Counted from the stretch's first letter, positions 1,617 through 54,771 are shown. The stretch is DNA of 64,000 bases from Elusimicrobiota bacterium (GCA_041694815.1 JBGFSC010000021.1:1-64000); one strand, 5' to 3'. Notes: a model not told the origin generated them from the letters alone. Numbers and translations: made by a program.

Positions 1617-1644
1617 GGAACTAATTCTTTGCTCGTTCGTATAT
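1617..1644 (+). promoter_or_regulatory. Putative ECF-sigma promoter of atypical tRNA 1
   Basis: GGAACT(1617-1622)-N15-CGTATAT(1638-1644); same boxes and spacing at 2952-2925 on the minus strand. Confidence 0.65.
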
Positions 1645-1654
1645 TAATTAGACC

Positions 1655-1725
1655 TGCGGGGTAGTTCAACGGTAGAACGGTCGACCGTCAATCGGACAAT
1701 GTGGGTTCGACTCCCACCCCCGCAG
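1655..1725 (+). tRNA. Atypical tRNA, anticodon GUC (Asp) on a tRNA-Asn-like body
   Basis: Acceptor TGCGGGG/CCCCGCA, G73; D arm GTTC/GAAC; T arm GTGGG-TTCGACT-CCCAC; loop CCGTCAA has C33 instead of U33; weak anticodon stem. Confidence 0.8.
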
Positions 1726-1731
1726 CGTCCA

Positions 1732-1771
1732 GAAAGCCGCAATTTCCGTAACGGTCGATATTGCGGCTTTC
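1732..1771 (+). other. Trailer hairpin of atypical tRNA 1
   Basis: GAAAGCCGCAAT/ATTGCGGCTTTC 12-bp inverted repeat with a 16-nt loop partly complementary to the anticodon arm. Confidence 0.75.
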
Positions 1772-1778
1772 GGCCTTC

Positions 1779-1807
1779 TTGACCACTATAGAAGAGTCTG
1801 CTAAGCT
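1779..1807 (+). promoter_or_regulatory. Sigma70-type promoter of small RNA 1
   Basis: TTGACC-N17-TAAGCT with TG extended -10. Confidence 0.7.
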
Positions 1808-1813
1808 ATTGCT

Positions 1814-1868
1814 GACGGTCGACTTGTTGAACTACCGGGCCCCGGGCAACCGGGGCCTTCGTTTTTCT
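1814..1868 (+). ncRNA. Small RNA antisense to atypical tRNA 1
   Basis: 1813-1823 complements tRNA 1680-1690; 1826-1836 complements tRNA 1660-1670; ends in GGCCCCGG-GCAA-CCGGGGCC plus T-tract terminator. Confidence 0.75.
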
Positions 1869-1964
1869 GTGGCGAATAGCGTGCCTTACTCCGGACGCAG
1901 CGATTTCCGGCTGCGACCCAATGCCTTCAGACAGTTGTATAATGACGGGTCGCAGCGCCCAGGC

Positions 1965-2312
1965 ATGGACATCCGACTCGTTAAAACGCCCATCCCCTTT
2001 TCGGAAGTCGCGCAATTCGCCAAAAGCCAGTTCGGCGAAATGATCAAGGCGACGGTCGACGTCCAACGGGCGGTATTGGCCCTCGGGGGAGAGCTCCATT
2101 CCGACGAGGAGGCCCTATTGATCGAGGACGGCTCCAGGCAAGAGGATCTCTGGGGAATCAACATTTACCCGGAACAGTCCGGAGAGGATCGAGTCGAATT
2201 CGACTCGATGATCAACGTCAGGCCCTCGCAAAATAACCGCTCCCGCGGCGTGGAGAACGCCGAAACGAGGGCGCGCATCCTGGAAATCGTCGGCCGACTG
2301 CTCCTCTCCTGA
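1965..2312 (+). CDS. DUF5674-like hypothetical protein
   Basis: Recognised motifs KATVDV...GGELHSD.E..L...GS.QEDLWGINIYP...FDSMINVRPSQNNRSR; ATG at 1965; TATAAT about 22 nt upstream. Confidence 0.75.
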   Translation: MDIRLVKTPIPFSEVAQFAKSQFGEMIKATVDVQRAVLALGGELHSDEEALLIEDGSRQEDLWGINIYPEQSGEDRVEFDSMINVRPSQNNRSRGVENAETRARILEIVGRLLLS

Positions 2313-2635
2313 TGGCCCAGCACGCGGACTTGGCGGCGGGCCGTTGGGCGACGCTCTCCTTACTGGAGCAGATGGGAAATATCGGAAGCGAGATTAGCCG
2401 GGCCCGGCGTTGGCAGTCGAGGGACCCGAAGCTTTTCGACGGCGCGATGATACGCGCGCTCGAATTGCTGGACCTGTCCATCGGCGACCCTCGCTGGCGG
2501 CGCCGACTCAAGGAGTTGCTGCGGGCCCGGGAGCTGCTCTGCGACGCCTGGCTCGGCGGCATGGAATATCAAACGGATCTAGAAGGGCTGGACCGCTACT
2601 TCTTCCACTTCGCCGTTGCGGCCAGGAACTCCTGA
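2312..2635 (+). CDS. Small helical hypothetical protein, partner of the DUF5674-like gene
   Basis: 107 aa, TGATG-coupled; motif RW..LSLLEQMGNIGSEISRA. Confidence 0.75.
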   Translation: MAQHADLAAGRWATLSLLEQMGNIGSEISRARRWQSRDPKLFDGAMIRALELLDLSIGDPRWRRRLKELLRARELLCDAWLGGMEYQTDLEGLDRYFFHFAVAARNS

Positions 2636-2651
2636 GCTAAGGGGCGTAATC

Positions 2652-2708
2652 AAAACTAAGAAGGGCTTCGGTTTTCCCGAAGCCCTCGGTCGTCTAAGGC
2701 TGCCTCTC
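2652..2708 (-). ncRNA. Small RNA antisense to atypical tRNA 2
   Basis: TTGAGAGGCAGC (2710-2699) and TTAGACGAC (2697-2689) complement tRNA segments 2889-2878 and 2908-2900; ends in AGGGCTTCGG-GAAAA-CCGAAGCCCT plus T-rich tail. Confidence 0.75.
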
Positions 2709-2714
2709 AATGCT

Positions 2715-2742
2715 AGTTTAGCAGATCGCCCACATAAGTCAA
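2715..2742 (-). promoter_or_regulatory. Sigma70-type promoter of small RNA 2
   Basis: TTGACT-N16-TAAACT with TG extended -10; shares TCTGCTAARCT with the promoter at 1797-1807. Confidence 0.7.
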
Positions 2743-2796
2743 TATTTTTAATAGGGCGAGTGCTCTGTGCCGTGAACAGACTCGAAGATGGCAGTC

Positions 2797-2837
2797 GGAA
2801 CCGATCAATCTGCCCCCTTACAGCCATGATCGGCTCC
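2797..2837 (-). other. Trailer hairpin of atypical tRNA 2
   Basis: GGAGCCGATCA/TGATCGGTTCC 11-bp stem (one GU) with a 19-nt loop near-complementary to the anticodon arm. Confidence 0.7.
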
Positions 2838-2843
2838 ATAAGG

Positions 2844-2913
2844 CTGGGAGGCCGGGATTCGAACCCGGATAGGCTGTTTGAGAGGCAGCTGTCTTACCGT
2901 TAGACGACTCCCA
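2844..2913 (-). tRNA. Atypical tRNA, anticodon CUC (Glu) on a tRNA-Gln-like body
   Basis: TGGGAG-TC-GTCT-AACGGTA-AGAC-A-GCTGC-CTCTCAA-ACAGC-CTAT-CCGGG-TTCGAAT-CCCGG-CCTCCCA-G; 5' acceptor strand one nt short; C:A mismatch closes the anticodon stem. Confidence 0.78.
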
Positions 2914-2924
2914 GACCCACCTCG

Positions 2925-2952
2925 ATATACGAATAACTCCGCAAAAAGTTCC
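2925..2952 (-). promoter_or_regulatory. Putative ECF-sigma promoter of atypical tRNA 2
   Basis: GGAACT-N15-CGTATAT on the minus strand. Confidence 0.65.
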
Positions 2953-53759: not shown

Positions 53760-54771
53760 TGGTGCCAGGCATCCACTTTCTACACTTTCTCAACTTTTGG
53801 AACTTTTAGGCCTCCTCATTCGTACTTGAGGTATGGGCCGCCAACCGAGACTGCATTTCCCCGGAGCTATCTTCCATGTGAGCGCCCGCGGCAATGGACG
53901 ACAGACTATCTTTTTTGATTCTCAAGACTGGAACAAGTTTCTTGATATTCTAGGCGAATTAAAACGAATCCGTCCCTTCAAGCTTTACGCTTACTGCCTT
54001 ATGGGCAATCATATCCATTTGCTGATCGAACCTTCTGGTCCCAAATTGTCCCTAATTATGGGCTTATTACTTGCGCGTTATGCCAAGTACCTTAACGCCA
54101 GATTTAAGCGCAACGGGCATGTTTTTCAGAATCGATTTCATGCGCGTCTTTGTGGAAAAGACTCTTATTTCCAACAAGTCATCCGATATATTCATTTAAA
54201 TCCCGTAGAGGCGGGACTTGCCGATGAACCGTCACGGTGGCCGTACTCGGGACACCTGGAATATCTCGGAAAATCTACCCGCCATCTTATCGATCAGGAA
54301 CAGCTTTTATCAATGTTGGGCTCTGATATTAGAACGGCACGGGCCGCCTATAGCCAATTTGTCTTGGGTGCGTTAAAAGACGATTATCTTTCTGTGGGCG
54401 AGACCGAGGACTTATCCAACGCTCGCGAATCTGACATTCACTTTAAAGCCGTCCAAGTCCATGTTAACGAGAAAAGTCTAGATGAAATTTGCGCGGAATT
54501 TAAGCCGATCTCATTGGAAATACTGCGAAGCTCGAGCAAGGTACGGACGGTTTGTCGCGCTCGACATCGTTTTATCGCCTGTGCTTTTGCGGCAGGCTAT
54601 TCGCTCACTGAAGTCGCGGCCTATCTTGGATTATCTTTGTCTGCGGTTTCAAAAGCACTAAACACCAAAGAACCTAAGGCTTGCCTGAGATCAGCTAATC
54701 GAATTTATGTGGACGACGGCAGGCAGCTATTAGAAAGTCAATAAAGTGTAGAAAGTGGATGCCTGGCACCA
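53760..54771. mobile_element. Y1-transposase element bounded by perfect 29-bp inverted repeats
   Basis: TGGTGCCAGGCATCCACTTTCTACACTTT at 53760-53788, reverse complement at 54743-54771; visibly AT-richer than the flanks. Confidence 0.85.
53833..54744 (+). CDS. RAYT-like HUH (Y1) transposase with a C-terminal HTH
   Basis: FHVSARGN, AYCLMGNHIHLL, GHVFQNRF, YIHLNPVEAGL, WPYS. Confidence 0.92.
   Translation: MGRQPRLHFPGAIFHVSARGNGRQTIFFDSQDWNKFLDILGELKRIRPFKLYAYCLMGNHIHLLIEPSGPKLSLIMGLLLARYAKYLNARFKRNGHVFQNRFHARLCGKDSYFQQVIRYIHLNPVEAGLADEPSRWPYSGHLEYLGKSTRHLIDQEQLLSMLGSDIRTARAAYSQFVLGALKDDYLSVGETEDLSNARESDIHFKAVQVHVNEKSLDEICAEFKPISLEILRSSSKVRTVCRARHRFIACAFAAGYSLTEVAAYLGLSLSAVSKALNTKEPKACLRSANRIYVDDGRQLLESQ

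Follow-up and report, generated by a model that had tools for sequence, protein, structure and literature searches.

The 64,000-nucleotide (nt) stretch of DNA analysed here, termed the window (GCA_041694815.1 JBGFSC010000021.1:1-64000), derives from an Elusimicrobiota bacterium whose genome comprises 2.77 Mb in 54 contigs, is 97.8% complete and contains 48 tRNA genes. Between positions 1,617 and 2,952 it carries two convergent cassettes, in each of which an atypical tRNA-like RNA is followed on the same strand by a small RNA (sRNA) with exact complementarity to parts of it. A preceding sequence-only reading had described two matched cassettes at this place, each with an upstream motif, an atypical tRNA, a hairpin, a promoter and an sRNA with terminator, and all of these parts were recovered by inspection of the sequence, ARAGORN, Rfam and a repeat search. 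Three points were absent from that description, namely the antisense sequence in the spacer loop, the occurrence of the upstream promoter before about 30 other genes, and a third, orphan sRNA gene in the same genome.

Architecture of the two cassettes

Cassette 1 lies on the plus strand and opens with a predicted extracytoplasmic function (ECF) sigma-type promoter at 1617..1644, which was read from the sequence and by motif scans and consists of GGAAC (1617-1621), a gap of 16 nt and CGTATAT (1638-1644). It is followed by tRNA-like RNA 1 (1655..1725; called by ARAGORN as tRNA-Asp(GTC) with its end at 1726), which reaches 58.7 bits with the Rfam tRNA model (RF00005, gathering score 29 bits) and 105.3 bits with R1, a covariance model of promoter plus tRNA-like RNA. 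This RNA features a U1:A72 pair, G73, a short D-loop and the anticodon loop CCGUCAA, with anticodon GUC and C33. A spacer hairpin, recognised by its inverted and direct repeats and its fold, occupies 1732..1771 and holds in its loop ACGGTCGA, which is antisense to nt 28-35 of the tRNA-like RNA. The sigma70-type promoter of sRNA 1 (1779..1807) comprises TTGACC at 1779-1784, a spacing of 17 nt and the extended -10 element TG-n-TAAGCT at 1799-1807, as read from the sequence and the sRNA alignment. sRNA 1 itself (1814..1866, with a predicted 5' end) was delimited by inverted repeats, a terminator scan and R2, the model of the sRNA gene (73.1 bits). Its antisense blocks face the anticodon arm (1813-1823) and the 5' strand of the D-arm (1826-1836), and a GNRA-capped terminator at 1837-1858 is succeeded by a U run.

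Cassette 2 repeats this layout on the minus strand. Its ECF-type promoter (2925..2952), found by the inverted repeat shared with cassette 1 and by motif scans, precedes tRNA-like RNA 2 at 2843..2913 (ARAGORN: tRNA-Glu(CTC), 2842-2913; Rfam tRNA 45.0 bits, R1 100.7 bits), which likewise bears U1:A72 and G73 and exposes the loop CUCUCAA with anticodon CUC. The spacer hairpin predicted by folding at 2797..2837 matches the anticodon arm only imperfectly, with 5 nt exact. The sigma70-type promoter of sRNA 2 (2715..2742) reads TTGACT, 16 nt, TG-n-TAAACT and was called by a consensus promoter scan (2742-2715; 9/12 matches plus TG), which did not call its counterpart in cassette 1, read by eye. sRNA 2 (2652..2708, predicted 5' end, R2 63.1 bits) was again delimited by inverted repeats and the terminator scan; its blocks oppose the anticodon arm (2710-2699) and the D-arm (2697-2689), and its terminator lies at 2687-2661. 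The upstream motif common to both cassettes, GGAAC-N16-CGTATAT, is identical to the GGAACT-N15 spacing given previously. By scan and by folding, no terminator separates the tRNA-like gene from the sRNA gene, and the sRNA terminator is the sole one in a cassette. Since this is the only terminator, transcription from the ECF promoter would read through into a self-pairing precursor, and such read-through transcripts are indeed predicted to adopt folds in which their sRNA and tRNA parts are base-paired with each other.

Neither tRNA-like RNA has an encoded CCA end, which several canonical tRNA genes of the source genome lack as well. The D-loop comprises 7 nt (AACGGTA) in both and is larger in canonical tRNA-Asp and tRNA-Glu. 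Because canonical tRNA-Asp(GTC) and tRNA-Glu(CTC) genes with G1:C72 and CCA are present elsewhere in the genome (contigs C6 and C54), the tRNA-like genes of the window represent extra copies. By sequence identity, the closest tRNA of the genome is tRNA-Gly(TCC) for unit 1 (0.80) and tRNA-Trp and tRNA-Pro for unit 2 (0.71 each). Descent from tRNA-Asn or tRNA-Gln, with identities of 0.70 and 0.67, was considered and is not supported.

Partner-specific complementarity and its conservation

The connection of the two RNAs in each cassette rests on four exact inverted repeats: 1680-1690 with 1813-1823 (11 nt) and 1660-1670 with 1826-1836 (11 nt) in cassette 1, and 2878-2889 with 2699-2710 (12 nt) and 2900-2908 with 2689-2697 (9 nt) in cassette 2. 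The earlier statement that each sRNA holds two blocks exactly complementary to its own tRNA thus stands, with 11 + 11 nt in unit 1 and 12 + 9 nt in unit 2. Owing to these repeats, the sRNAs constitute the reverse complement of tRNA nt ~6-16 and ~26-37, while the D-loop and the 3' strand of the D-stem are skipped.

Homologous cassettes were sought with R1 in 101 genomes of one Elusimicrobiota order at a threshold of at least 65 bits, ordinary tRNAs reaching at most about 63 bits. This search yielded about 86 matches in about 28 of the 101 genomes, with up to seven or more per genome, and copies were also found by BLAST of 60 relatives; in total, 72 distinct units with the upstream motif were collected. 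Flanking sequence of 200 nt or more was available for 69 units; in 68 of these, an exact antisense match of 8 nt or longer to the unit's own anticodon arm is present, and 34 contain at least 8 nt of antisense to the 5' D/acceptor strand as well. The longest antisense match averages 12.4 nt in a unit's own downstream region vs 6.4 nt in those of other units (12.0 vs 6.3 nt in a version of this comparison with 24 units). The own region is strictly the best match in 42/69 units and tied for best in 13/69, the ties being due to near-identical orthologues. At each of tRNA nt 27-36, pairing with the cognate sRNA is seen in 83-100% of 65 distinct units, with three to six pair types per position, and U33 or C33 of the tRNA-like RNA is met by A or G of the sRNA. 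Over the whole pair table, 83.8% of cells are paired in cognate combinations vs 59.6% when the sRNAs are dealt to other units. Hence, the covariance models and the search of related genomes, which had been proposed as a check, bear out that complementarity co-varies and is retained in homologous loci, as seen in the 68 of 69 units.

A corresponding picture emerges from predicted net binding energies, from which the cost of unfolding has been subtracted. These amount to -19.4 kcal/mol for tRNA-like RNA 1 with sRNA 1 and -16.6 kcal/mol for tRNA-like RNA 2 with sRNA 2, compared with 0 to -1.2 kcal/mol for the cross pairs and 0 to -7.6 kcal/mol for pairs with canonical tRNA-Asp, -Glu, -Asn and -Gln. 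By these calculations, the paralogous pairs appear insulated from each other. In the 2.77-Mb source genome, a scan for exact matches to the 11- and 12-mers of both seeds revealed no second site of comparable complementarity, but only scattered single short matches beyond the cognate tRNA-like RNA.

A spacer hairpin between the tRNA-like gene and the sRNA promoter is present in 40 of the 69 units. In 30 of these 40, the spacer contains at least 7 nt of antisense to the unit's own anticodon arm, vs 129 of 1560 non-cognate combinations; the match extends over 8 nt in unit 1 and is weak in unit 2. In minimum free energy folds, part or most of the antisense stretch falls within the hairpin loop. 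Judging from these alignments, the 5' strand of the anticodon stem is engaged in a three-way co-variation, its partners being the 3' strand of the stem, the sRNA and the hairpin loop.

The tRNA-like RNAs retain their fold throughout this diversification. In 81 aligned homologues, 97.5% of cloverleaf cells are paired, a level reached by none of 500 shuffles, and 16 of 18 pairs have changed on both sides. For the anticodon stem, the paired fraction amounts to 92.8% and compensatory changes are numerous, and the TTCRA of the T-loop and the GG (G18G19) of the D-loop are nearly invariant. The anticodon loop is dominated by C32 (76/81), G34 (64/81; C34 in 13/81), U35 (62/81), C36 (71/81), A37 (72/81) and A38 (72/81). 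Position 33 is divided between U33 (47/81), as in unit 2, and C33 (33/81), as in unit 1, with A33 in a single member, and a few members have a loop of other than 7 nt. At the acceptor end, T is found at position 1 in 64/81 and A at position 72 in 67/81. The anticodon stem thereby has the appearance of a variable "key", and the loop seems to be under separate constraint.

The sRNA genes are built on an equally regular plan. Forty aligned genes share a TTGAC -35 element, an extended -10 element (TG-n-TA-n-ACT), a variable antisense block, an anti-D-arm block and a terminator. The sequence of the terminator stem and its GNRA loop (tetraloops GAAA, GCAA, GAGA, GCGA and GTAA) are kept even across families, whereas the 5' part is hypervariable; the conserved terminator (e.g. 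1837-1858) may serve as a protein handle. In the source genome, this terminator motif is confined to sRNA 1, sRNA 2 and a third sRNA on the minus strand at C19:20737-20834, an orphan that has a promoter and a terminator, is not preceded by a tRNA-like gene, and for which moderate binding to tRNA-like RNA 1 is predicted (-9.3 kcal/mol). Neither the sRNAs nor the hairpins matched any Rfam family at gathering thresholds or at E up to 5, the best scores being noise (RT-8, 20.8 bits vs 87; BjrC68, 15.1 vs 39). No toxic-peptide open reading frame (ORF) is evident inside the units and no start context was seen; the longest closed ORFs have medians of 35 (+) and 31 (-) codons, which are raw lengths not set against shuffles or conservation.

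About a fifth of the units carry the anticodons GTA, GAT, GCC, GCT or GAC, or loops of other than 7 nt. Two further subtypes (L059/L074 (G010:C34), L122, L131, L130, L136, L095 and L049) likewise have an ECF promoter and a cognate sRNA. In one of them, the acceptor sequence TGCTCCC or TGCCCCC is accompanied by GCT or GCC loops, and the sRNA begins directly after the tRNA. The other combines G1 (GCCCCGG) with GAC loops, and here the sRNA is directed against the 3' half of the anticodon arm.

With respect to distribution, the R1 search detected no cassette in the largest genus of the order (38 genomes), and in a 151-genome sample of the phylum, cassettes were found in genomes of the same order only. 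The four matches outside the order in that sample comprise two tRNA-Asn, one tRNA-Gln and one partnerless U1:A72 tRNA with a GTC anticodon. A scan for the exact pattern in one genome per GTDB species gave 50 matches, 39 in Elusimicrobia/Elusimicrobiota, 5 in entries named 'bacterium' and 6 in other phyla; no tRNA is present at the latter six, which were dismissed as chance. In another family of the phylum, a U1:A72 GTC tRNA at L187 (G110:C33) lies behind a sigma70-like promoter without an antisense partner and is a possible free-standing relative of the tRNA-like RNAs.

Loss of the two partners is asymmetric. With R2 at a threshold of at least 50 bits, 77 matches were obtained in the genomes of the order, 20 of which have no R1 match nearby. 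Nineteen of these partnerless loci were inspected: 11 are devoid of any tRNA-like trace, 4 have kept the ECF promoter with the tRNA-like gene deleted or truncated, and in 1 the tRNA-like gene is interrupted by an insertion of about 68 nt in the T-loop; at a further one, an otherwise complete cassette is truncated by the end of its contig, and two loci are too short for a decision. The opposite situation, in which a tRNA-like gene has no matching sRNA, occurs in 1 of 69 units. An insertion of about 68 nt in the T-loop, with two potential hairpins, is seen in two different genomes, at L213 (G023:C5:55600-56220) and L209 (G092:C33:3900-4520), and may represent a mobile element of small size or an insert resembling an intron.

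A candidate RNA-only toxin-antitoxin-like module and its alternatives

The explanation favoured here, held tentatively and with somewhat less than even confidence, is that the cassettes constitute toxin-antitoxin-like modules made of RNA only, whose sRNA would unfold and neutralise a harmful, stable tRNA-like RNA. In the proposed mechanism, the ECF promoter would drive a stable, folded RNA of tRNA shape that presents an Asp/Glu-type loop on a U1:A72 end, and the strong sigma70-type promoter just downstream would drive an sRNA of about 55 nt. The single-stranded 5' part of the latter would pair exclusively with its own tRNA-like RNA, at nt ~5-16 and ~26-40, opening the acceptor, D and anticodon arms and putting the tRNA-like RNA out of action, and in many cassettes the loop of the 3' trailer hairpin would provide a second, shorter antisense copy. 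An excess of the sRNA, which is probably shorter-lived and would arise partly in cis and partly from its own promoter, may thus keep the tRNA-like RNA unfolded, and loss of the sRNA would set it free.

The asymmetric decay of the partners is what would be expected if the tRNA-like RNA were the costly partner and the sRNA its antidote. Insulated paralogues under the same two promoter types appear typical of selfish modules and are hard to explain as regulation. The cassettes are, moreover, RNA-only as the sequence-only reading had supposed, given that no protein family recurs among the 81 ORFs flanking 27 cassette loci. That reading had also suggested a stress switch, but the only terminator of the cassette is that of the sRNA and read-through is probable. 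Because no terminator separates the two genes and the read-through transcript folds on itself, toxin-antitoxin logic is favoured over a simple switch of this kind. Of the alternatives put forward previously, an RNA-RNA toxin-antitoxin pair therefore fits the evidence better than mistranslation.

Several points weigh against this explanation. The placement of a stress-sigma promoter ahead of a toxin gene has no explanation under it, and the decay asymmetry would also fit an sRNA with an independent job. The orphan count relies on model scores, so that divergent tRNA-like RNAs below 65 bits may escape it. Furthermore, the table of tRNA/sRNA pairs takes the longest exact match as its anchor and is thereby biased towards pairing, the alignment of the 81 tRNA-like RNAs (A2) was fitted to the covariance model, and all genomes are metagenome-assembled and related, so that the counts do not represent independent events. 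As to mistranslation being the harmful effect, the idea appears weakened as a general role by C33 in 33/81 members, by anticodons other than those of Asp and Glu or odd loops in about a fifth, and by the existence of the G1 subtype.

The manner of harm merits separate consideration, since the sequence-only reading had proposed that the tRNAs could be charged with Asp or Glu and then amidated, so that Asp or Glu codons would receive Asn or Gln. According to two reports, U1-A72 is the positive signal for GatCAB, and G1-C72 together with an extra D-loop base (U20A) blocks it (PMC1635274, PMC2811023). Going by their sequences, both tRNA-like RNAs would carry these substrate marks, having U1:A72 and no supernumerary D-loop nucleotide. 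The premises of the proposal held up in the source genome: U1 is restricted to tRNA-Asn, two tRNA-Gln and the two tRNA-like RNAs; GatB scores 573 bits; asparaginyl-tRNA synthetase (AsnRS) and glutaminyl-tRNA synthetase (GlnRS) remain below their cut-offs, with best scores of 83 bits vs 342.6 and 63.5 bits vs 425.8, respectively; and the loops of the tRNA-like RNAs (CYGUCAA, CUCUCAA) are those of the genome's tRNA-Asp and tRNA-Glu(CUC), except for C33 in unit 1. The lack of U33 need not be fatal, as A33 is reported for the natural mistranslating tRNA-ProX (PMC11415595; PMC10404621). Across the 101 genomes of the order, GatB exceeds its cut-off in 96, AsnRS in 58 and GlnRS in 27. Absence of the latter two enzymes was examined as a correlate of the cassettes and rejected, cassettes being found both with and without them. 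Charging by non-discriminating aspartyl- or glutamyl-tRNA synthetase (AspRS, GluRS), followed by amidation through GatCAB and the reading of Asp or Glu codons as Asn or Gln, is the best guess at the route of harm, though a doubtful one. The more elaborate proposition, an addiction module made of RNA only whose toxin is a hybrid-identity tRNA miswriting Asn or Gln, kept unfolded by sRNA and cis hairpin alike up to the loss of the sRNA and wired to a sigma-E-like stress factor, seems comparably doubtful. Alternatively, the tRNA-like RNA may cause harm by blocking AspRS, GluRS and GatCAB enzymes or the ribosome.

Two other explanations treat the cassettes as a regulatory or an adaptive device. 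The sRNA could be a regulator with mRNA targets, for which the ECF-induced tRNA-like RNA acts as a sponge or decoy under envelope stress. An ECF promoter on the decoy and a sigma70-type promoter on the regulator would be fitting logic for such a circuit, and sRNAs stand alone in at least 11 inspected loci and in the source genome. It is nevertheless unlikely, because the entire single-stranded part of the sRNA is complementary to the body of the tRNA-like RNA, conserved D-arm included, and the seed is hypervariable across paralogues and orthologues, so that no conserved target set is apparent; nor did the exact 11-/12-mer scan find another comparable site in the source genome, and with the same two promoter types in all cassettes, insulated pairs would add no regulatory logic. 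Still less likely is an adaptive mistranslation switch, in which charged and amidated tRNA-like RNAs miswrite Asn or Gln under stress to the benefit of the cell and the sRNA sets the dose. It draws on the amidation-favouring U1:A72 (PMC1635274, PMC2811023), with U1 found otherwise in tRNA-Asn and tRNA-Gln only, on the Asp/Glu-type loops with their prevalent G34, U35 and C36, on GatB in 96 of 101 genomes, and on the natural precedent of a tRNA-ProX without U33 (PMC11415595). Yet about a fifth of the members bear anticodons beyond any amidation route or loops of other than 7 nt, lock-and-key diversification and orphan antidotes are unexpected for a cell-serving device, and the predicted co-transcription with an antisense RNA speaks against simple induction.

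Two further explanations were weighed. The tRNA-like RNA might be a processing scaffold, whose tRNA shape recruits RNase P and RNase Z to free or stabilise the RNA downstream, the complementarity then reflecting precursor folding. The long-range pairing of tRNA and sRNA parts in predicted read-through transcripts and the missing terminator between the genes agree with this; but the sRNA has a predicted strong promoter of its own, a cutting signal needs neither an Asp/Glu-type loop nor U1:A72 nor a variable stem with a matched partner, and the pairing would ruin the very fold required by the processing enzymes, which renders a scaffold very unlikely. The least credible of these proposals is that the tRNA-like RNAs are decoys or spare tRNAs against anticodon nucleases or tRNA-targeting toxins of phages or competitors, with stems varying to escape. 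A hypervariable anticodon stem beside a conserved loop would suit it, as would HicB, Gp49 and Phd/YefM among the neighbours; it leaves the dedicated antisense RNA of each copy without reason, however, a tRNA with U1:A72 would hardly serve as a spare for tRNA-Asp or tRNA-Glu, and no nuclease gene travels with the cassettes among the 81 ORFs at 27 loci.

Known systems, the ECF regulon and the genomic neighbourhood

No described equivalent was encountered in Rfam or in the open-access and bioRxiv literature, in line with what had been supposed before, though subscription papers might hold one. In none of the nearest known kinds does an RNA of full tRNA shape come with an antisense partner dedicated to it. 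Type VIII toxin-antitoxin systems such as SdsR/RyeA and CreT/CreA pair an RNA toxin with an RNA antitoxin. They resemble the cassettes in the adjacency of the RNA partners, the base-pairing antidote and the toleration of orphan antidotes. The putative toxin described here, by contrast, has the complete shape of a tRNA and is placed under an ECF promoter, its antidote would pair in two blocks with a folded body, and many insulated paralogues occur per genome. Paralogue-specific antisense RNAs are also a hallmark of type I systems, exemplified by Ibs/Sib and hok/sok. In common with these, the cassettes have a short antisense sRNA with its own promoter and terminator beside the target and diversified, partner-specific regions, but no toxic peptide ORF is evident, and the sRNA acts in trans from a downstream gene on the same strand without overlapping its target.

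In E. coli, 3'ETS-leuZ, a spacer from a tRNA operon or precursor, sponges RyhB and RybB, which provides another instance of a transcript from a tRNA gene that pairs with a trans-encoded sRNA. There, however, the spacer and not the tRNA body pairs, the sRNAs have known mRNA regulons, and co-varying paralogue pairs are not known. The sigma-E-dependent sRNAs MicA, RybB and MicL of enterobacteria are Hfq-dependent mRNA repressors. They share with the tRNA-like RNAs the small size, the non-coding nature and a sigma-E-like promoter of the GGAAC-N16 type, but are not tRNA-shaped and are not known to have a dedicated antisense partner. With regard to mistranslation, the closest parallel is tRNA-ProX with ProRSx of Streptomyces and Kitasatospora, dual-identity mistranslating tRNAs whose expression is reported to be toxic in E. 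coli (PMC10404621, PMC11415595). In both cases, additional tRNA genes combine one amino acid's anticodon with a body that bears the identity of a different one, and position 33 is unusual. The cassettes differ in having no adjacent synthetase (81 ORFs, 27 loci), the proposed route being GatCAB, and in their private antisense sRNA and stress-sigma promoter.

If the pairing holds true, the cassettes would form the first family of complete tRNA-shaped RNAs that each possess an antisense RNA dedicated to them, and would extend toxin-antitoxin biology to a pair without protein or peptide. About 70 natural, insulated RNA lock-and-key pairs would lend themselves to tests of antisense invasion of a folded tRNA and to use as orthogonal parts. 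If charging and amidation also hold true, the tRNA-like RNAs would amount to an encoded, controllable device for Asp-to-Asn and Glu-to-Gln mistranslation, making programmed mistranslation directly testable.

The upstream motif itself is, by prediction, an ECF-sigma-type (sigma-E-like) promoter. Its extended form, GGAACTTTT, about 11 nt and TCGTAT, has 28 matches in the source genome vs 1 for a reversed control. One copy precedes the gene of a 180-amino-acid (aa) protein with Sigma70_r2 and Sigma70_r4_2 domains, followed by a zf-HC2 anti-sigma gene (Pfam). An operon of sigma and anti-sigma factor behind its own motif is the usual layout of auto-regulation. Moreover, the motif is found before about 30 other genes of the genome (e.g. 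C36:17539 and C41:33007/33493/33979), which read as DUF222/HNH-like, retropepsin-like, ORF6N, RayT-like, ComM-like, MT-A70, SpoVG and RelE/ParE-like, these names being readings of the translations since the Pfam scan covered the sigma operon only. A copy within the window (53799-53825, +) stands ahead of a RayT-like gene. As the motif often ends only 7-10 nt ahead of the start codon, the mRNAs of the regulon are apparently leaderless. The motif is enriched in 94 of the 101 genomes of the order, cassette-free genomes included; because of this wide occurrence, the cassettes appear to be connected to a regulon that exists independently of them. In a phylum with almost no molecular genetics, this outlines a large predicted ECF-sigma regulon whose genes are apparently leaderless.

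Regarding the neighbourhood, the 81 flanking ORFs belong to unrelated housekeeping families, toxin-antitoxin-type families being limited to HicB, Gp49 and Phd/YefM. In the window, a DUF5674 gene (1965-2312, +) and an ORF of 107 aa without known family (2312-2635, +) lie between the two cassettes and overlap at their stop and start codons. This gene pair recurs at 66-74% DNA identity in 16 relatives; a linkage to the cassettes was rejected, as a tRNA-like gene lies within about 1.5 kb in 0 of these 16 loci. The 10-nt sequence GACGGTCGAC within the DUF5674 ORF (2051-2060) equals the seed of sRNA 1, but was taken as a chance match because it contains a palindrome frequent in the genome. Of the four tRNA genes called by ARAGORN in the window, the two besides the odd pair are ordinary, namely tRNA-Lys (1431-1505) and tRNA-Glu(TTC) (1527-1598). 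Dense arrays of 10 and 5 tRNA genes with unusual sequences, including an ATA 'Tyr' anticodon, were observed in two other genomes (L045 in G024:C9 and L056 in G042:C39, respectively) and resemble phage or mobile tRNA arrays.

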